Assembly (NCBI GenBank): GCA_034666725.1
Contig: JAXDLE010000169.1
Location: 1 to 46,201, forward strand
Length of the DNA: 46,201 bases
Direction of reading: 5' to 3'
Source: Chloroflexota bacterium
Lineage (GTDB): Bacteria; Chloroflexota; Limnocylindria; Limnocylindrales; CSP1-4
This document shows, piece after piece, positions 1 through 8,139 of this stretch. Both the position numbers and the translations under genes were made by a program. Within the stretch, counting starts at the first letter, position 1; each line of letters starts with the position of its first letter. The notes beneath the pieces are model-generated. The model saw only the letters and a program-made list of their open reading frames with translations. It made no database searches and was not told where the DNA came from.

Positions 1-819
1 TGGGCGCTGCGCGGCGGCGGCGGCAATTTCGGTGTCGTGACGCGCTTTCGGCTCGCCCTCAACCCGATCCACGAGGTTCTCCAGGGGATGCTGCTCATGC
101 CCGCGACGGCCGAAACTGTTCCTGCCGTATTGGCGCTGGGTCATGCCGCGCCAGAAGACCTGACGCTGATGCCCTACGTGATGGCCATTCCGCCCATGGA
201 CGAGGTCCCGCAGACCCATCACGGCAGGCTCGGGCTGTGGGTGGATACGCTCTGGGCTGGTCCCGATGCGTCCGGTGACGATGTGCTGGCGACGCTGCGC
301 GCGCTTGGACCCATCCTCATGGACACCATCGTCGCGAAGCCGTATCCACAGGTATATCCCGATCCGGGCGACGGCCCGCGCGGCGCATGGACGTCGAGCT
401 CGATCTTCCTCGACGACGTCGACGCCGGCGTGTTCGAGACGGTGCGCGACGTGCTGGCAGAAGGGCCGCCGGGCGACAACCTGGCCATCTTCCGCATCCT
501 TGGTGGTGCCGCCGGGCGAGTCGCCAACGACGCCACGGCCTTCGGTTGGCGTGACCATCGATACCTGCTCTGGCTCATCGCCGACCACGCGTCGTCAGAG
601 CCCGGAGCTCCCTATGCGAGCTGGGTGGCCAGTGCGAGGGCGGCGCTGGCAGACCGCGGCATGGGTGCTTTCGTCAGCTTCATGGCCGACGGTGGACCGG
701 AGAGCGTTGCCGCCGCATACCCAGCGGCGACGCTGCACCGTCTACGCGAGATAAAGCGCCGCTGGGATCCCGACAACCTATTTAGACATAACCACAACAT
801 TCTGCCCAGCAACGGGTGA
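1..819 (+). CDS. FAD-binding oxidoreductase, berberine-bridge-enzyme-like (5' truncated by window edge)
   Basis: Frame 1 is open from base 1 and reads WALRGGGGNFGVVTRF; C-terminal BBE motif AAYP..TLHRLREIKRRWDPDNLFRHNHNI. Confidence 0.88.
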   Translation, partial: WALRGGGGNFGVVTRFRLALNPIHEVLQGMLLMPATAETVPAVLALGHAAPEDLTLMPYVMAIPPMDEVPQTHHGRLGLWVDTLWAGPDASGDDVLATLRALGPILMDTIVAKPYPQVYPDPGDGPRGAWTSSSIFLDDVDAGVFETVRDVLAEGPPGDNLAIFRILGGAAGRVANDATAFGWRDHRYLLWLIADHASSEPGAPYASWVASARAALADRGMGAFVSFMADGGPESVAAAYPAATLHRLREIKRRWDPDNLFRHNHNILPSNG

Positions 820-899
820 CAGCGGCTTCCAACTGCCCCGCAAGTGGGGCATCATTGGCACTTCAGCCGTGTGGGACAGGTCATTAAGGGAGGAAACCG

Positions 900-1475
900 A
901 TGCTGCGTAAGAGATTGGTCGCCGCGCTGGGCTTCGCACTCGTTCTGGGCACCGTCATCGCCGCGCCGGCGGCGGCCGAAACGGTCATCGACCCGTGCAA
1001 CGGGCCCAGCGGCGGCACGTGTGGCTACTACGAGGTGTACGACAACGATCCGGGCATGAAGGGCGCCGTATGCAAGTACGAGACCGCCAGCTACGACCTC
1101 GACTGGATCTCGGTTCGGCCGCCCCTGATGCACGGGCCGTATTCGTACAAGACCAAGGTCCAGTGGAAGTTCAACATCCTCCGCTCGACCAACTTCGGAG
1201 CGTCATACACGGGCATCTACAACAGCTCGTGGCAGGTTGCCATGGCGAACGACGCCATCCCGGCCCGCGATGGCAGCGGCTTCAGTCGGCGCACCTGGTA
1301 CGCCGCCGATCCAAACCCGACTGGTTGGTTCAAGGTGCGCCTGCTGCTGTGGTGGAAGAATGGCGCCGGCAACGTGGTGGGAAAGATGAAAATTGAGTAC
1401 GACCACTATCAGGGCAAGTGGAACGGCAACACCGACAACCGGACTGGCTACGACTACTGCCTCCAGGACTGGTAG
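900..1475 (+). CDS. Secreted hypothetical protein (4 Cys, Trp/Tyr-rich); paralog of 5423-5989
   Basis: SD GGAGG upstream; signal peptide ending APAAA|ETV; clear similarity to 5423-5989. Confidence 0.85.
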   Translation: MLRKRLVAALGFALVLGTVIAAPAAAETVIDPCNGPSGGTCGYYEVYDNDPGMKGAVCKYETASYDLDWISVRPPLMHGPYSYKTKVQWKFNILRSTNFGASYTGIYNSSWQVAMANDAIPARDGSGFSRRTWYAADPNPTGWFKVRLLLWWKNGAGNVVGKMKIEYDHYQGKWNGNTDNRTGYDYCLQDW

Positions 1476-1523
1476 CCCGTCGGCTCCGTAAGCGGAGATT
1501 CGACCGAACATCACCTGTGGACC

Positions 1524-1552
1524 GAAGGTTTTGGCCAGGCCATGGCGTCTAA
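1524..1552 (+). promoter_or_regulatory. Candidate ECF-sigma promoter GAAGG-N17-CGTCTAA
   Basis: ECF-like -35/-10 (CGTC) spacing directly upstream of the operon that encodes the ECF sigma factor. Confidence 0.4.
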
Positions 1553-1582
1553 CGTGCACCACGCAGACGAGGTGCACGAGCA

Positions 1583-3760
1583 ATGTCCAATCGCGCAACG
1601 AAGCTACGGCCTGATGCGAGATGGCCACACCTCAGGCTAGCCGGGGCAATTGCCTGCGCCCTCGCCATCGCGTGCGGGGCGCCGACCAGCATTCCATCCC
1701 CATCGCCGAAGCCTTCGGCCACAGGTGCTCCCCCGGCAACTGCGTCGGTCGCGACGACCGCGCCGGCCTCGGGATCGCCGACTTCGTTGCCCCCGGTCGC
1801 AGACGTGCCGTTCTACAAGGGCGACGCTGCCCGAACCGGTGTGCACCCGGGGCCTGGTCCGCAGGTCGCTCCCCAAGAGGTCTGGAGCACCCAGATCGAC
1901 TGCGCCCTTGATAACCACACCGGGGTCGTTGGCAATGGCCTGTATGTCGTCGGATGTGACATCGGGGTGCTCGTCGCGCTCGACGTCCACAGCGGAACCG
2001 TCGTCTGGACGGCGGAGCTCGGCGGGCCGGTGGAGGGTTCTCCGGCCTTGGCCGATGGTGTCGTGTACGCCTCGGATTCGAGCGGCCACGTAACCGCGCT
2101 CGACCTCGATACGGGTGCCATGGTCGAGACACTCGACATCCCTGGGATGAGGCACCCAGTCGTCGTCGACGGGACACTCTACGTTGGCACCAAGGACGGC
2201 CGATTCCTAGGGATCAGCACCGGTGACCGGTCGATCAGCTGGACCTGGAACGCGCCGGCCGGCGTTACCGAAGTCTCCGGCACGGTCGTCGGCGACACTG
2301 CCTACATCGGTGCAGACGACGGCAATCTGTACGCCGTTGCCCTATCCAGCGCGACCGAACGCTGGCATTTCCACGTGATCTCCGGTCGAGTCAGCACTCC
2401 TGCAATCGGCTCGGATGCCATCTACGTTGCGGCTCTTCAGAACGGCGACACGCCATCCGGCGAGCTTTATGCCCTCGACCTAGCAACCGGCACCGAGCTC
2501 TGGCGATACCGGACGGCGACGGGCAATCAGATCGCCCCGCCCACCGTTGCCGACGGCATCGTCTATGCACCATCGCAAGACGGCGGCCTATACGCACTCG
2601 ACGGGCTATCGGGCGACGTTCTGTGGCAGACACCCACTGAGCGTACGGACGGGCAGACGCCCGCCCTCTCTGGCGGGTTCGTCTATCTGGCCGCAGATCG
2701 CACGGTTGGCGCATACGAAACGTCAGAGGGCACCCAGGCATGGCTTGTCGACCTTGGGGCGGACACGGACAGCAGCCCGGTGGTCACAGGCGGAACAGTC
2801 ATCGTCGGCGACAACTCCGGCCGCGTCCGCGCGTACGCCGAGCCGGCCCTGGCCGTCCTCTTCCCCGATGTGGCCAGCACCCCAGCCCCGTCGCAGTCAC
2901 CCGCAAGCGCGTTGGGCATGGACTTGGTCGAAACTTTCGAGTCGGACGACTACTCCTTTCCCAACGGGATTGACGTTGGGCCGGACGGCCGGATGTACAT
3001 CGTCAACGCGTTCGCCAACCAGATCCTCGTGCTGGATCGTGAAACAGGCGCGACCCTGGATCGCTGGGGCAGCCCGGGGTCCGAGGCGGGTCAGTTCAAC
3101 TTCATTCGCGATCCCAACGATCCGGGAAGCTCCATCGGCGGCCTCGTTGTCGCCGACGATGGCTCCGTCTACGTCACCGACACTGTCAATCGGCGCATTC
3201 AGGTGTTCACGTCTGACGGTGACTTCCTTCGCCAGTGGGGCCGCTTCGGTAGCGCCGACGGACAGTTCCTTGATCCCATAGACGTCGCTCTCGGGACGGA
3301 TGGGGACGTATACGTGGTGGACGATCAGCGCGACGACGTCCAGCGCTTCTCCCCGGACGGCGAGTTTGAGGCCGTATTCGGCGGGCATGGGACGGAGCCG
3401 GGCCAGATGAACTTCACCGGCGGCATCTGGGTCCAGCCTGACGGATCCATCTTGAACGCGGACTGGCAGAACTATCGGATTCAGGCGTTCGATGCGGACG
3501 GCGCGTCGCTGTGGACCTACGGGAGTCGCGGCTCTGGACCCGGTCAGTTCAACTTGCCGGGTGACATTGCCACCGATCTGGACGGCAATATATATGTGAC
3601 AGACGACACCAGGCTCGTCGCGCTCAGCCCCGATCGCCAGTTCATTGCTGCGCGCGAGTTCAACATCGTCAGCATGGGTTACATGATCCGAGATGGCACT
3701 CGGCTCTACATAACCCTGCCGTGGGACGATCAGATCCTGGTGCTCGAGGTGAGCGATTGA
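1583..3760 (+). CDS. Lipoprotein with N-terminal PQQ-binding-like (BamB-type) beta-propeller and C-terminal NHL-repeat propeller
   Basis: Lipobox-like LAIAC; P/S/T linker; YKGDAARTG then repeats such as SPALADGVVY..ALD..TG...W; NHL repeats GSADGQFLDPIDVA and GSGPGQFNLPGDIA. Confidence 0.88.
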   Translation: MSNRATKLRPDARWPHLRLAGAIACALAIACGAPTSIPSPSPKPSATGAPPATASVATTAPASGSPTSLPPVADVPFYKGDAARTGVHPGPGPQVAPQEVWSTQIDCALDNHTGVVGNGLYVVGCDIGVLVALDVHSGTVVWTAELGGPVEGSPALADGVVYASDSSGHVTALDLDTGAMVETLDIPGMRHPVVVDGTLYVGTKDGRFLGISTGDRSISWTWNAPAGVTEVSGTVVGDTAYIGADDGNLYAVALSSATERWHFHVISGRVSTPAIGSDAIYVAALQNGDTPSGELYALDLATGTELWRYRTATGNQIAPPTVADGIVYAPSQDGGLYALDGLSGDVLWQTPTERTDGQTPALSGGFVYLAADRTVGAYETSEGTQAWLVDLGADTDSSPVVTGGTVIVGDNSGRVRAYAEPALAVLFPDVASTPAPSQSPASALGMDLVETFESDDYSFPNGIDVGPDGRMYIVNAFANQILVLDRETGATLDRWGSPGSEAGQFNFIRDPNDPGSSIGGLVVADDGSVYVTDTVNRRIQVFTSDGDFLRQWGRFGSADGQFLDPIDVALGTDGDVYVVDDQRDDVQRFSPDGEFEAVFGGHGTEPGQMNFTGGIWVQPDGSILNADWQNYRIQAFDADGASLWTYGSRGSGPGQFNLPGDIATDLDGNIYVTDDTRLVALSPDRQFIAAREFNIVSMGYMIRDGTRLYITLPWDDQILVLEVSD

Positions 3761-4329
3761 CCCATGCCGGCGCGGGCTCGCATCGGGCCGCCACAGGCGC
3801 GGAGCTCGTTCGCGAGCTCCTCGCGACCTTCGCCGACCCTGACGCCTTCCGCGTTTGGTATGAAGATGCGGTCGTCCGTGTGTACCGGTATCTGTTTCCG
3901 CGCTGCGGAGGGGACGCGGGTTTGACGGAGGAAATCACTCAGCAGACGTTCATCTCTGCGATTGAGAACCGCTCTTCCTTCGCGGGACGTTCCGACTCCG
4001 TTACCTGGCTGTGCGCCATCGCCCGCAACAAGCTGGCCGACCACTACCGCCGTATGGATCGGATCGACCGACGCCATCTCCGCCTTGTGGTGAGAGAGAT
4101 CGACGTTGAAAGCGACCGCACGTCGGTCATCGAGGACAGAGACATGTTGATGTCCGCGCTGAGGAAGATGCCCGCGATGCAGCGCGCGGTACTCGTCCTC
4201 TGCTACCTCGACGATCTCTCGGTCGCCGAGGCCGCGGGGATCCTGGAGCGCAGCGAGTCAGCGACCGAGTCGCTGCTCACCCGAGCGCGCGCCAGGCTGC
4301 GCGAGATTCTGTCGGGAGAGATGCAGTGA
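3757..4329 (+). CDS. ECF-family RNA polymerase sigma factor
   Basis: Region 2 EEITQQTF..WLCAIARNKLADHYRR; region 4 LVLCYLDDLSVAEAAGIL..SLLTRARARLRE; likely TTG start overlapping upstream TGA, with GAGGTG SD. Confidence 0.92.
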   Translation: MTHAGAGSHRAATGAELVRELLATFADPDAFRVWYEDAVVRVYRYLFPRCGGDAGLTEEITQQTFISAIENRSSFAGRSDSVTWLCAIARNKLADHYRRMDRIDRRHLRLVVREIDVESDRTSVIEDRDMLMSALRKMPAMQRAVLVLCYLDDLSVAEAAGILERSESATESLLTRARARLREILSGEMQ

Positions 4330-5288
4330 ACGACGAATCCTTGCGGCGCCACCTACGCTCCGCCCTTGACACGCCGGCCATGCCGCGTGACGAGTTCGCT
4401 GCAGAGCTACATGACGATCTCGCTGCTCGTCTCCGGCTCGCGCCGCCGCGAGCCACCGCGGTGGCCAGTCATCGTCGACGTCCCCATCGGAGCACCTGGC
4501 TGCTTCTCGCGGCCACGCTGGCACTGCTCATAGCGCTCCTGGCAGGGCTGGCAGCGGCGGGTGCACTCCCAGACCTGTTGCCAAGGGGCGTGCCGGTCAT
4601 GCGGCAGATCCAGATTGATGGCCAGGTGCGCGTGGCGGTGAGGCCCGATCGGCCTCAGGCATTGAGTCCAGGTGGAACGCTCGACGGCTTCGATGTCAGG
4701 GTCGCCGAAGAGGTTGCGACGCGGCTCGGGGTCGATGCCGCACGTTCAACTCTGACAGTCCAGGAGATGCTCGGGCCAACGCCCGCCTGGCAACTGGCCC
4801 TGCCCAGCCAGTCCCTCCCACGAGGACGGGCCGACGAGTACATCGCGAGCACGCCGTACTACTTCTGGCCGCATTACATCGTCGTGGCCTCGGCATCCCC
4901 GGCGTCGTCAATCGCCGATCTAGCCGATGAAACTGTGTGCGCAGCGCAAGGCAGCGCGGGCCAGAGCTGGCTGAGCGAGATGGAGTCATTGGTTCCACGG
5001 GTGCTCGCCGACGAGAGCGCCTGCGAGGCCTCTGTCAGATCGGGCGAATCGCAGGCATTCGTGTCAGAGCGGCGGCTGCTGCCTGATTTTGCCTCTGACG
5101 GAGCTTTCCGCGCCCTGAGCGAACAGCCGGTCCTGCTCGAGCCACGGGCCATGCTTGTGCCGCGCTCGCTACCGGGCGCCCGCGAGTTCGTGGCCGAAAT
5201 AGACTTGCTTATCGAGGAAATGCGCGCGGACGGCACGATCAGCGAGTTGTCGAGGACCTGGTTCGGCGGGCAGGATCTCGCCCGCTAG
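4326..5288 (+). CDS. Putative anti-sigma membrane protein with C-terminal ABC amino-acid-type substrate-binding domain
   Basis: GTGA overlap with sigma stop; short cytoplasmic N-terminus, one TM (WLLLAATLALLIALLAGLAAAG), then SBP family-3 motifs LDGFDVRVAEEVATRLG and MRADGTISELSRTWFG. Confidence 0.75.
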   Translation: MNDESLRRHLRSALDTPAMPRDEFAAELHDDLAARLRLAPPRATAVASHRRRPHRSTWLLLAATLALLIALLAGLAAAGALPDLLPRGVPVMRQIQIDGQVRVAVRPDRPQALSPGGTLDGFDVRVAEEVATRLGVDAARSTLTVQEMLGPTPAWQLALPSQSLPRGRADEYIASTPYYFWPHYIVVASASPASSIADLADETVCAAQGSAGQSWLSEMESLVPRVLADESACEASVRSGESQAFVSERRLLPDFASDGAFRALSEQPVLLEPRAMLVPRSLPGAREFVAEIDLLIEEMRADGTISELSRTWFGGQDLAR

Positions 5289-5422
5289 GGGCCGGGCCGA
5301 AGCGGCCGCGTGCGAGAATTCGCGCCCTCGACCAAATAGGGCGTGTTACGGTCCAATGACTTGGGCCGTGTGCGCTGAGCCGTGAATTGGAAGCACGCGC
5401 TCACTAGACCAACGGAGGTCAA

Positions 5423-5989
5423 TTGAATAGACGATCCACGCGCGGCATCCTTGTCGTGCTTGCGTTCGCGCTGGGCTCACTCGTCGTCGCCGCCCCGGCC
5501 GCGGCCGAGACTGTGCTTGATCCTTGCACCGGAACGTGCGGCTCATGGGAGGTCGAAGACCAGGGACCAAGCGGTCCCGCGGGCGCGAATTGCCGCTACG
5601 AGACGGCGAGCCAGGAGCTCGACACCGTCTCCGTGCGACCACCGCTGATGTTCGGCACCTACACGGCTACCACCCGAGTCGAATGGCGCTTCAAGATCCG
5701 CCACTCGAATTCGTTCAGCGGGCACCGCACAACGATCTTCACCAGCTCATGGCAAGCTGCGATGGCTGACAACTCCTTCCCCGCCCGCGTCGGCCACGGC
5801 TTCTCGCGGCGATACTGGTCGGCATCAGAGAACCCAGTCGGCTACTACGCCGTCCGTGTCGAGATGCGCTGGTGGCACAGCGGCTCGGTCGAGGGCACCG
5901 CGCTCGTCCAGTACGACTGGTACAAGCTCCAGAACACGGGCTTCGGGGACGAGGTGAGCCCCGACCCGTACTGCTACGAGGTCGCCTGA
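5423..5989 (+). CDS. Secreted hypothetical protein (4 Cys); paralog of 900-1475
   Basis: TTG start with GGAGG SD; signal peptide APAAA|ETV; shared motifs DPC, GTCG, C.YETAS, SVRPPLM, SSWQ.AMA, GFSRR.W, WW, YC. Confidence 0.85.
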   Translation: MNRRSTRGILVVLAFALGSLVVAAPAAAETVLDPCTGTCGSWEVEDQGPSGPAGANCRYETASQELDTVSVRPPLMFGTYTATTRVEWRFKIRHSNSFSGHRTTIFTSSWQAAMADNSFPARVGHGFSRRYWSASENPVGYYAVRVEMRWWHSGSVEGTALVQYDWYKLQNTGFGDEVSPDPYCYEVA

Positions 5990-6005
5990 CCGTTAGTCCG
6001 GCAAT

Positions 6006-6046
6006 ATGGCCGGTCGTGCGAGAATCAACGTTGCACGACCGGCCAT
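6006..6046. repeat. Perfect 14-bp inverted repeat (hairpin) upstream of glyQS
   Basis: ATGGCCGGTCGTGC (6006-6019) pairs with GCACGACCGGCCAT (6033-6046); no U-tract. Confidence 0.7.
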
Positions 6047-6076
6047 GCCATGCGCCGGCACGCAAACGGAGATCCC

Positions 6077-7471
6077 GTGACCTCAAATCCTGACCCGACG
6101 CCCGCCGTCGCCAATCTCGACACCATCGTGTCGCTCGCCAAGCGGCGGGGCTTCGTGTTTCCTTCATCCGAGATCTACGGCGGCATCAACGCCGTGTGGG
6201 ACTACGGGCCTCTGGGCGTCGAGCTCAAGAACAACGTCAAACGTGCCTGGTGGCGCGCCATGGTCCAGGAGCGCGACGACATCGTCGGTCTCGACGCGGG
6301 CATCCTGATGCATCCCCAGGTCTGGGTGACGAGCGGCCATGTCGCGTCGTTCAGCGATCCGCTGGTCGAGTGCGCCGAGAACAGCCATCGCTTCCGGCTC
6401 GACGAGCTGCCCGGAACCGAGGGCTTGACCGAGACCGATAAGCGCGATCCGGGCATCGTCGAGCGGCTCAACCTGCGCTGCCCCACGGACGGCTCGAAGC
6501 TGGGTCCGCCGCGACGCTTCAACCTGATGTTCAAGACGCACATGGGCCCGATCGAGGAGGACTCGAACGCGGTCTACTTGCGCCCTGAGACCGCGCAGGG
6601 CTCCTACGTCAACTTCAAGAAAGTCCAGCAGTCATCGCGTAAGAAGCTGCCGTTCGGCATCGCCCAGATCGGCAAGAGCTTCCGCAACGAGATCTCGCCG
6701 GGCAACTTCGTATTCCGTATGCGCGAGTTTGAGCAGATGGAGATGCAGTACTTCGTGCCCCCCGCGGACGCGGCGCGCATCTTCGAGGAGTGGCTGCCCC
6801 GGCGCTGGGCTTGGTACACGGCCTACGGCGTCACCGAGGAGCGGCTGCGTTTCCGCGAGCACGCGCCCGACGAGCTTGCGCACTACGCCAAGAAGGCGAT
6901 CGACGTCGAGTACCGCTTCCCCTTTGGCTGGAAGGAACTCGAGGGCATCCACAATCGCGGCGACTGGGACCTGTCGCGTCACCAGAAGGAGAGCGGCGAG
7001 AACCTCGAGTACTTCGATCCGACGACGGAGACGAGCTTCATTCCGTGGATCGTCGAGACCGCAGGCGGCCCCGACCGCGCCGCATTCACTTTCCTGATCG
7101 ACGCGTATCGCGAGGAAGAGGTGCGCGGCGAGAAGCGTGTCTCATTGGCGCTTCACCCGCAGCTCGCGCCTTACAAGGTGGCGGTTCTGCCGCTGCTCAA
7201 GAAGCGGCCCGAGATCGTCGAGCTGTGCCACAAGCTGGTGAACGACCTGCGGCGCGACGTCATGGCCGTTTACGACGACACGGCGTCGATCGGCAAGCTG
7301 TATCGCCGCCAGGACGAGATCGGCACGCCGTGGTGCGTGACGGTCGACGTCGATTCGCTCGAGGACGGCGCGGTGACGGTGCGTGAGCGCGACACCATGA
7401 CCCAGGAGCGCGTGCCCGTCGAAGGCGTCAAACGGCTGATCCTGGACCGATTGGCCGCCTCGCTCCCGTGA
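6077..7471 (+). CDS. glyQS: Glycine--tRNA ligase (alpha2 type)
   Basis: [71 protein letters not shown]. Confidence 0.97.
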
Positions 7472-8139
7472 CTGAGATGCAGCCGCCCCTGCCACCGGCG
7501 GAGGAGGCGGCTCAAGGCGAGCAGCCCACAGAGCTGTCGGAGCGCGCTCGCGTCAACCTGGCCCAGCTCGCAAGCCTGCGCTGGGTGCCATTGACGGCTG
7601 CCTTGCTGTCCTTGGTGCTGTCAGTCGTGGCGATCTATACCTCGACGCAGCAGCCGTCGATCTCCTTGCTCATGCCCAGCCAGGTGCGCATTGCCCAGGG
7701 CCGATCATCGGGCGCCGCTTATCTCTACCTCCAACCAGCGTTCGTCAACACGGCGCAGAACAACAGGGTCGAGGTGATCAGCGGCATGGCTGTCCATGTT
7801 TCCGGTACGGACGCGACCACGCCCGGGACGGACTTCACCTGGACGCAGCAGCTGCGCCTCGTCGTTGATAGCTCGTCGGGACAGCTCACCTATCAGTACG
7901 TTGGTGACGCTGTCCCGCTTGTTGTCAGCCCGAACAACGCGGCTTCGCCCCTGGCGCTGTTCGAGGCGCCGCCCGGCTGGTTTTTCGCTGCCGGCAGCTA
8001 TCAGTTCAGCCTGACGGCCGATCGTGTTGTGGCCGACAGTCCATTAAGCGCCACATTCAGCGTGGATCTGACCGCGGACGACGTGGCGTTTCTTGATCAA
8101 CCTGGGCCGGACAAGTTCCTAACATTCAGCATTCGCTAA
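7468..8139 (+). CDS. Hypothetical membrane-anchored protein
   Basis: GTGA overlap with glyQS stop; single TM ([19 protein letters not shown]) followed by a beta-rich domain. Confidence 0.7.

Follow-up and report, generated by a model that had tools for sequence, protein, structure and literature searches.

Receptor-type anti-sigma factors and solute-binding proteins (SBPs) that act as sensors are each known, but no description of their combination was found. Such a combination is predicted here from a 46,201-nucleotide (nt) stretch of DNA, hereafter the window, which is contig JAXDLE010000169.1 of GenBank assembly GCA_034666725.1, from a Chloroflexota bacterium of the class Limnocylindria. 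At 4326..5288 on its forward strand lies a gene for a 320-aa protein that probably crosses the membrane once (N-in/C-out) and acts as an anti-sigma factor with a Venus-flytrap sensor, holding inactive a stress-type sigma factor of the extracytoplasmic function (ECF) kind that is encoded with it.

The class I anti-sigma domain (ASDI) has a four-helix fold and the anti-sigma domain of RsiV belongs to a class other than that of the window protein; CnrY has a short periplasmic tail only and a separate sensor, CnrX. Class I and class II anti-sigma factors contact sigma-2 and sigma-4, blocking core binding, and in the CnrY/CnrH structure the first helix sits against sigma-4 and the second against sigma-2 (PMC7406223; this and the papers below are cited for parts of their text). 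The class I domain, which sequence profiles can recognise, has about 100 residues, often with an HxxxCxxC motif, and the study drawn on for this left out matches of less than 50 aa. RsiV, which controls sigma-V in Bacillus subtilis, is a lysozyme-receptor anti-sigma factor, with release by regulated intramembrane proteolysis (PMC4183432, PMC5014341), and the RsgI anti-sigma-I factors of Clostridium thermocellum are single-pass proteins in which interchangeable CBM/PA14 ectodomains sense extracellular substrates (PMC10328401, PMC6852018). For SBPs, a 2021 review describes chemoreceptors, sensor kinases, cyclic di-GMP enzymes and Ser/Thr kinases as signalling partners (PMC8050422); the passages of it cited here draw no link between SBPs and anti-sigma factors, and the word sigma occurs in them once, in the introduction's list of receptor classes. 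A full-text literature search, assessed on titles and the openings of abstracts, gave no anti-sigma factor with an SBP or flytrap domain. Neither 'SBP_bac_3' nor 'PF00497' occurs in the main text and part of the supplement of PMC7826278 or in part of the supplement of PMC7406223, and the remaining supplement parts could list such an architecture.

The window protein shares with CnrY a short two-helix cytoplasmic segment, the predicted anti-sigma part, followed by one transmembrane (TM) helix, and in the model described below the two helices are laid out on the sigma factor in the same way. It differs from CnrY in that its N-terminus shows no detected sequence similarity to it, although CnrH (4cxf) does come up among the matches of the sigma factor, and in that a complete SBP domain is fused to it. 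It is like RsiV in being a single-pass protein whose own ectodomain would be the direct receptor for the inducer, as is described for that of RsiV, and unlike it in the fold and the ligand of that ectodomain; proteolysis of the window protein is only proposed. Its modularity recalls RsgI, since the same N-terminus is found on SBP, PD40-propeller and ~140-aa ectodomains. The partner of RsgI, however, is sigma-I and not an ECF sigma factor, its N-terminal domain is different, and, according to the passages cited, it needs autoproteolysis of a conserved periplasmic domain, which the window protein does not have. Finally, BvgS-type kinases, GlnH-GlnX-PknG and ScrB-ScrC likewise use a family-3 SBP fold for signalling and not for transport, but the window protein carries its SBP and a predicted sigma-binding segment on a single polypeptide chain.

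Reading frame, layout and coupling to the sigma gene

The sigma gene and the parts of the 320-aa protein are as follows.

3721..4329, + strand: ECF sigma factor, type A; the longest open reading frame (ORF) has 202 aa and the true start is uncertain (Pfam, TIGR02937)
4326..5288, + strand: probable anti-sigma factor, a single-pass membrane protein of 320 aa with an SBP_bac_3 ectodomain (ORF, Pfam, AlphaFold2 (AF2))
4332..4430, + strand: predicted two-helix cytoplasmic sigma-binding segment; helix 1 is residues 3-14 and helix 2 residues 22-35 (AF2 secondary structure)
4494..4556, + strand: TM helix, residues 57-77 (AF2 helix and hydrophobic run read from the sequence)
4596..5267, + strand: extracytoplasmic SBP_bac_3 (Venus-flytrap) domain, residues 91-314 (Pfam, Foldseek)

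The open frame of 320 codons at 4326-5288 (+) starts with GTG, with GGGAGA 6 nt upstream. A public gene call for this locus, P0001 (window 4599-5288, 229 aa), begins at the internal Met92 and so drops the cytoplasmic segment and the TM helix, after which the protein resembles a leaderless SBP. In P0002, a relative with 61% identity, the whole N-terminus is conserved and Met92 is replaced by Leu, which indicates that the long frame is correct. The presence of the N-terminal motif in 85 of 151 retrieved proteins also supports the long frame.

Residues 101-314 match SBP_bac_3 (PF00497) in Pfam with 48 bits (cut-off 26.4) and an E-value of 1.4e-12, and the relatives L004 and P0002 match the same family. 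An AF2 model of the 320-aa protein, built on 102 family members, has a mean predicted local distance difference test (pLDDT) score of 91.4 and shows helices at 3-14 and 22-35, a disordered basic stretch at 45-55 (HRRRPHRS), the TM helix at 57-77 and a two-lobe SBP fold at 91-312. The basic residues ahead of the TM helix imply an N-in/C-out topology. This is the layout that had been read from the letters of the window: a cytoplasmic segment, one TM helix and a family-3 SBP domain. Neither a lipobox nor a signal peptide is present in the protein, which has the cytoplasmic segment and TM anchor instead.

The window's genome is a metagenome-assembled genome (MAG) of 2.34 Mb in 187 contigs, 85.6% complete, and the window sequence, whole or partial, is present in three DNA runs labelled soil metagenome, one of which may be its source; no RNA run is listed as containing it. 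Of the 29 BPD_transp_1 and 50 ABC_tran matches in this genome none is on the window's 46-kb contig, confirming the earlier observation that no ATP-binding cassette (ABC) permease or ATPase gene is nearby. The protein thus lacks what marks the binding protein of an ABC transporter, namely permease and ATPase neighbours and export by a signal peptide or lipobox. At 11 other loci (L002, L005-L014) in relatives, read by eye from the translations, ordinary SBPs are lipoproteins beside permease-like and Walker-A ATPase ORFs.

The upstream ORF (3721-4329) matches Sigma70_r2 (1e-08), Sigma70_r4_2 (1.4e-13) and Sigma70_ECF (2.2e-06) in Pfam and TIGR02937 in NCBIfam (72 bits, cut-off 42.9); it has sigma-2 and sigma-4 domains only, as an ECF sigma factor should. 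Its nearest solved proteins are SigL, SigE, SigW, SigK and CnrH (4cxf). The sigma ORF overlaps the end of a propeller gene upstream by 40 nt and, as the sequence-only reading had pointed out, its stop codon is overlapped by the start of the 320-aa gene, TGA and GTG sharing bases (GTGA). In all seven loci inspected base by base the start codon of the gene either shares bases with the sigma stop codon or lies directly against it, and in 11/11 further full-length loci from 401 genomes of the class the sigma ORF runs up to the start of the gene. By contrast, a sigma gene was found within the ~1.5-kb flanks of none of 18 loci with a partial (SBP-only) match, a comparison set that includes two loci (L040, L043) from genomes flagged unpublished. 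Co-transcription with the sigma gene, which is expected of an anti-sigma factor, is therefore indicated at the level of gene arrangement.

A search for homologs of the single protein gave two matches and the gene appeared to be a singleton; profile searches overturned this. The same arrangement is present in one of 61 close relatives (G024, locus L004), and a scan of species-representative genomes gave six loci, in each of which a sigma ORF extends to the point where the gene begins. In the class-wide profile search (401 genomes) 129 genomes matched at E<=1e-25, of which only 12, the window's own included, have a match that begins at profile position 1 or 2. When 401 genomes were sampled across the phylum, matches at E<=1e-45 were confined to families of the class Limnocylindria (6 genomes, 2 of them full-length), with none in the other Chloroflexota families searched. 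Among 1.84 billion cluster representatives there were 9143 matches at E<=1e-3 and 204 at E<=1e-30, and the full architecture is present in at least 85 clusters formed at 50% identity, this being the number of the 151 retrieved proteins that are full-length with the N-terminal motif. The ESM Atlas returned generic SBP clusters only, with a best score of 0.83, under the level that the tool treats as more than a lead. The gene belongs, therefore, to a sizeable Limnocylindria family. Its members are named at source as 'ABC transporter substrate-binding protein', 'ABC-type amino acid transport substrate-binding protein' or 'cystine transport system substrate-binding protein'. One genome, G221, has the same cassette gene with an identical score on two contigs (C6 6432-7409 and C10 2384-3361), from duplication or assembly redundancy.

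The N-terminal segment and its predicted sigma contacts

The N-terminus of the family has the conserved motif MDDERLxxRLR..P..P.F...L...LA..LG and falls into two subtypes, as does the sigma factor. Type A combines AFRxWY in the sigma factor with MDDERLxxRLR..P..PxPxF...LHDxLA..LGF in the N-terminus, and type B combines HGQxLFGFVRRxGLS with MDDERIERALRxGPPDEPxY. The two subtypes pair 9:9 without exception, and the SBP domain is the same in both.

A structure prediction for the complex of sigma residues 30-202 with residues 1-57, the check that the sequence-only reading had proposed, gave an ipSAE of 0.82 in each of three runs, and the best of three controls had 0.00. The score passes a mark to which 116 of 157 solved complexes, but only 2 of 215 mismatched pairs, come up; these counts hold only roughly as the model used its own alignments. 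At least 95% of the contacts are common to the three runs and the pLDDT of the partner is at least 71. In the model residues 1-16, which include helix 1, contact sigma residues 139-163 and 190-197, in sigma-4, and residues 18-38, which include helix 2, contact sigma residues 37-81, in sigma-2; L28, H29 and L32 are among the residues that make the modelled contacts. This is the topology of the CnrY-like class II factors, as predicted by the model, and the N-terminal profile shows no homology to CnrY or NepR among the chains of the PDB. Nor is it a class I domain of the zf-HC2/RsiW-like kind, as there are two helices in ~38 residues and no Cys/His motif. A weak NCBIfam match to 'antisigma' (E 0.066, 13 bits) is far under its cut-off of 100.

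A profile of the first 48 residues was searched against 5.8 billion proteins. The 46 matches at E<=1 comprise 28 with PF00497, 3 with a PD40/DPPIV propeller, 1 with an EAL fragment and 14 without a precomputed Pfam domain. The propeller form, with a type-B N-terminus and TM helix, is represented by P0166, P0173 and P0175 (395 aa); the N-terminus, TM helix and linker of P0166 are near-identical to those of the SBP forms P0156 and P0164, and this looks like a swap of ectodomains. In P0170, P0176 and P0184 (207-214 aa) a type-B N-terminus and TM helix are joined to an unknown ectodomain of ~140 aa. A type-B sigma ORF ends at the gene start in three of the four metagenome loci with this form (L062-L065), and the fourth locus begins 60 nt ahead of the gene. 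The N-terminal segment is, therefore, unlikely to be a mere signal anchor of a transporter, being found on other ectodomains, one of them next to the same type of sigma factor. Both of the alternatives to an SBP came from the search for the same N-terminus on other sensor domains that the sequence-only reading had suggested, and its worry that the segment might be just a long signal anchor of a kind that ordinary ABC binding proteins carry was not borne out. The ordinary SBPs of these genomes are lipoproteins encoded beside permease and ATPase genes. The EAL match, P0163 (110 aa on a 659-nt contig), joins a type-B N-terminal motif to an EAL fragment without a TM helix and may be an assembly chimera.

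Within the window's own genome, N-terminal hidden Markov models searched against 13,999 ORFs gave only the protein itself as significant (8.2e-16, the next being 0.087); other single-pass proteins adjacent to ECF genes are alike in general layout, with no detectable homology. The genome has about 21 ECF-type sigma genes on 21 contigs (e.g. C84 7720-10328, C167 9636-11932 and C171 515-3236). Most of them precede, and often overlap, genes for proteins that span the membrane once and have a short helical N-terminus, with ectodomains that are large and differ among them, and the ZAS-type HxxxCxxC motif is seen in only three of these partner proteins.

Ectodomain, propeller lipoprotein and candidate promoter

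The top Foldseek matches of the ectodomain are amino-acid SBPs (E ~1e-18, target TM-score 0.70-0.76, 17-24% identity). With the polar-amino-acid ABC SBPs (PF00497) of the same Limnocylindria genomes it shares the fold, the GFD and PYY motifs and a Cys pair, of which Cys205 is present in 100 of 102 family members and Cys233 in 101. Strongly conserved aromatic positions are W155, Y178, Y179, W181 and W215. The ABC SBPs differ from the family in having a lipobox or signal peptide and permease and ATPase neighbours, and also at the canonical alpha-carboxylate Arg, which lies 10 residues before the PYY motif. This residue is kept in all 12 ABC-linked relatives that could be scored (the pattern did not fit 6 of 18) and lost in 90 of the 102 sigma-linked members. 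In the canonical clamp this Arg is paired with an alpha-ammonium Asp; the window protein carries R168 and E248 where the two align, and its closest relative, P0002, has no Arg there. As most members are without the amino-acid clamp residues, an amino-acid ligand should not be assumed. A quick tree with Shimodaira-Hasegawa-like approximate likelihood ratio test (SH-aLRT) support groups 18 ABC-linked SBPs of the class into a single clan (support 100) and places some sigma-linked members, L029-L032, nearest to it; the tree is midpoint-rooted and does not establish the direction of evolution.

The ECF sigma factor and the SBP protein have a third constant partner. A cassette of these two genes and a gene for a PQQ/NHL lipoprotein is common to 18 loci in 16 Limnocylindria genomes, as counted from the lengths and sequences of the contigs. 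In the window the further elements of the cassette are these.

1583..3760, + strand: lipoprotein of 725 aa with a PQQ-like (BamB-like) and an NHL beta-propeller (Pfam PQQ_2 1.1e-42, NHL/DUF5128)
1523..1553, + strand: candidate ECF-type promoter at the head of the cassette (motif conservation, position weight matrix (PWM))

The lipobox of the propeller protein, AIAC-G, was recognised by eye close to its N-terminus. A homolog of this protein adjoins in 18/18 loci; in 5 of them, that of the window among these, its gene lies upstream of the sigma gene, and in the other 13 downstream of the SBP gene. Of the sequence-only picture, then, the architecture stood; the gene is one of a sizeable family and not a singleton, the lipoprotein is a third constant partner, and the amino-acid ligand that had been envisaged is not to be taken for granted.

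The candidate promoter consists of CGAAGG (1523-1528), a 17-nt spacer and CGTCTAAC (1546-1553), about 30 nt before the start of the propeller gene. CGAAGG-N17-CGTCTAAC heads all nine type-A cassettes, be the first gene that of the propeller or of the sigma factor, and this conservation suggests that it acts as a promoter. Seven of the nine fit the search pattern exactly; L020 has GACGG and L055 has CGTATA, and the spacer in L015 is 16 nt. The window site has the top PWM score in its own genome (21.9, the next being 15.7), and it is the only one of the four matches to the strict pattern in 2.34 Mb that contains GAAGG. The sigma factor may, therefore, mainly drive its own cassette, as far as motif scans of an incomplete genome can indicate. 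A different motif, CTGAGCGTTTCG-N~15-CGTCG, was seen by eye, without statistics, in six of the nine type-B cassettes (L016, L017, L058-L061) and not in L018, L019 and L057, where another gene precedes the sigma gene. A sigma-70 promoter scan of 800-6100 gave no promoter-like sites, and a terminator scan of the same region gave three overlapping terminator-like sites inside the gene, no more than in shuffled sequence.

Proposed mechanism and rival explanations

The reading with which the analysis began, a transporter binding protein repurposed as an anti-sigma receptor, is supported by the synteny (18/18), the paired subtypes, the complex model, the modularity of the N-terminus and the contrast with ordinary SBPs. 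From these we infer the following for the inhibition of the sigma factor, the signal, the mode of release and the regulon. The first ~38 residues would form two helices clamping the co-translated ECF sigma factor, the first at sigma-4 and the second at sigma-2, and this clamp at the membrane would keep the sigma factor off RNA polymerase. The signal would be received by the family-3 SBP ectodomain, presumably derived from amino-acid SBPs of ABC importers of the same lineage, and would be either a ligand that closes the flytrap or contact with the PQQ/NHL propeller lipoprotein. Release of the sigma factor could then come about by a change of conformation or by cleavage of the anti-sigma factor, once exposed, at site-1 and after that at site-2 (M50); the genome has homologs of the M50 site-2 protease on contigs C98, C170 and C110. 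Once free, the sigma factor would transcribe the cassette's own promoter, CGAAGG-N17-CGTCTAAC, and the levels of propeller lipoprotein, sigma factor and anti-sigma factor would rise together.

Several points weigh against this mechanism. Every genome in the analysis is a MAG and the support is computational throughout, and the regulon is derived from motif scans of an 85.6%-complete genome. Searches of Pfam and NCBIfam (E<=10) with 11 N-terminal segments gave no real matches for any of them, the chance-level match being Rop (E 0.1), and the N-terminal profile against all PDB chains gave a best E of 0.31, to unrelated proteins; the term anti-sigma rests, therefore, on context and the model. The complex score may partly reflect learned likeness, there being many solved ECF/anti-sigma complexes, and the controls do not exclude this; a passing model cannot tell an inhibitor from an activator. 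Of the 102 family members, 12 retain the Arg of the ectodomain, 27 the Asp/Glu and 10 both. With the clamp mostly lost, the flytrap may bind no small ligand in most members, and the propeller lipoprotein could be the true sensor.

This last point leads to the rival that survives best, which is possible but not the explanation we expect: an anti-sigma factor whose degenerate flytrap senses no small molecule and instead docks the PQQ/NHL lipoprotein, the real sensor or modulator. RseB on RseA and CnrX on CnrY offer comparisons for such a co-sensor. The constant presence of the lipoprotein gene in 18/18 loci although the gene order changes, and the loss of the Arg/Asp clamp in ~90% of members when all 12 scored ABC-linked relatives keep the Arg, would both be explained by docking. 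Moreover, PQQ-type/NHL propellers resemble the sensor domain of the kinase AfsK (NCBIfam match) and likewise that of the kinase PknD. A degenerate flytrap is less easily reconciled with lobes and a hinge whose fold is predicted with confidence (for residues 91-320, taken in 10-residue blocks, the pLDDT is mostly 94-98), with the strong conservation of the five aromatic positions and with the retention of both R168 and E248 in the window protein, and the propeller gene might just as well be the system's output.

That the protein binds the sigma factor but acts positively, as an activator, tether or stabiliser, is very improbable. Context and a binding model cannot separate activation from inhibition, but the modelled contacts span sigma-2 (37-81) and sigma-4 together, which is the pattern of class I and class II anti-sigma factors and suggests that the core-binding surface of the sigma factor would be occluded.

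The least probable explanation, by a small margin, and one already disfavoured, is an ordinary membrane-anchored SBP for an ABC importer encoded elsewhere, with a long signal anchor as its N-terminus and the sigma gene as an unrelated neighbour: TM-anchored SBPs do exist in monoderm bacteria, the public names of the members are those of ABC transporter, amino-acid and cystine binding proteins and the fold and nearest structures are those of amino-acid SBPs, but the 46-kb contig has no permease or ATPase gene, the coupling to the sigma gene is invariant (18/18), the cytoplasmic segment is conserved, co-segregates with the sigma subtype and occurs also on non-SBP ectodomains (its ~140-aa-ectodomain form again following a sigma gene), the model of its complex with the sigma factor passes, and the Arg kept in every scored ABC-linked relative is mostly lost in the sigma-linked family.

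We return, then, to the single-pass anti-sigma factor with a flytrap sensor. If it is real, ECF sigma factors join the signalling outputs that are driven by solute-binding domains. A systematic annotation error would also be corrected, as members are named ABC binding proteins and one gene call lost its N-terminus. That the short predicted sigma-binding module escapes curated profiles suggests that many partners of ECF sigma factors in Chloroflexota go unrecognised, and a compact, testable set of sigma factor, anti-sigma factor and promoter, with a flytrap that binds a ligand, would make an attractive building block for ECF switches under ligand control. More speculatively, the cassette might be a three-part Limnocylindria device, so far unrecognised, for sensing outside the cytoplasm, in which a flytrap that has moved past amino-acid binding is wired to an ECF sigma factor by an unclassified two-helix anti-sigma module and works with a double-propeller lipoprotein, giving kinase-free switching by a non-amino-acid small molecule or by the ligand state of the lipoprotein; its plug-in N-terminus would then be a new class of anti-sigma module, combinable with SBP, PD40-propeller and other ectodomains.

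Other genes were observed around the cassettes. Two paralogous secreted proteins of ~190 aa flank that of the window (900-1475 (+) and 5423-5989 (+)); they match each other with E ~1e-50 and have a signal peptide and conserved Cys. They have no Pfam or NCBIfam match and were not found in the 17 other cassette loci searched. Some type-B cassettes start with a secreted, Cys-containing protein of 206-223 aa just before the sigma gene (L019 3612-4232 (+), L057 7688-8368 (-) and L065 628-1299 (+)). The L019 protein is identical to the L004 protein that was searched, which is without a Pfam match, and the L057 protein matches it at E 7e-46; the resemblance of the L065 protein to these two is by eye only. 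Downstream of the window's cassette, a 223-aa ORF with one hydrophobic segment and no Pfam match (7468-8139 (+)) overlaps with its start the stop codon of the preceding 473-aa ORF (6050-7471), which from its translation we take to be glycyl-tRNA-synthetase-like.

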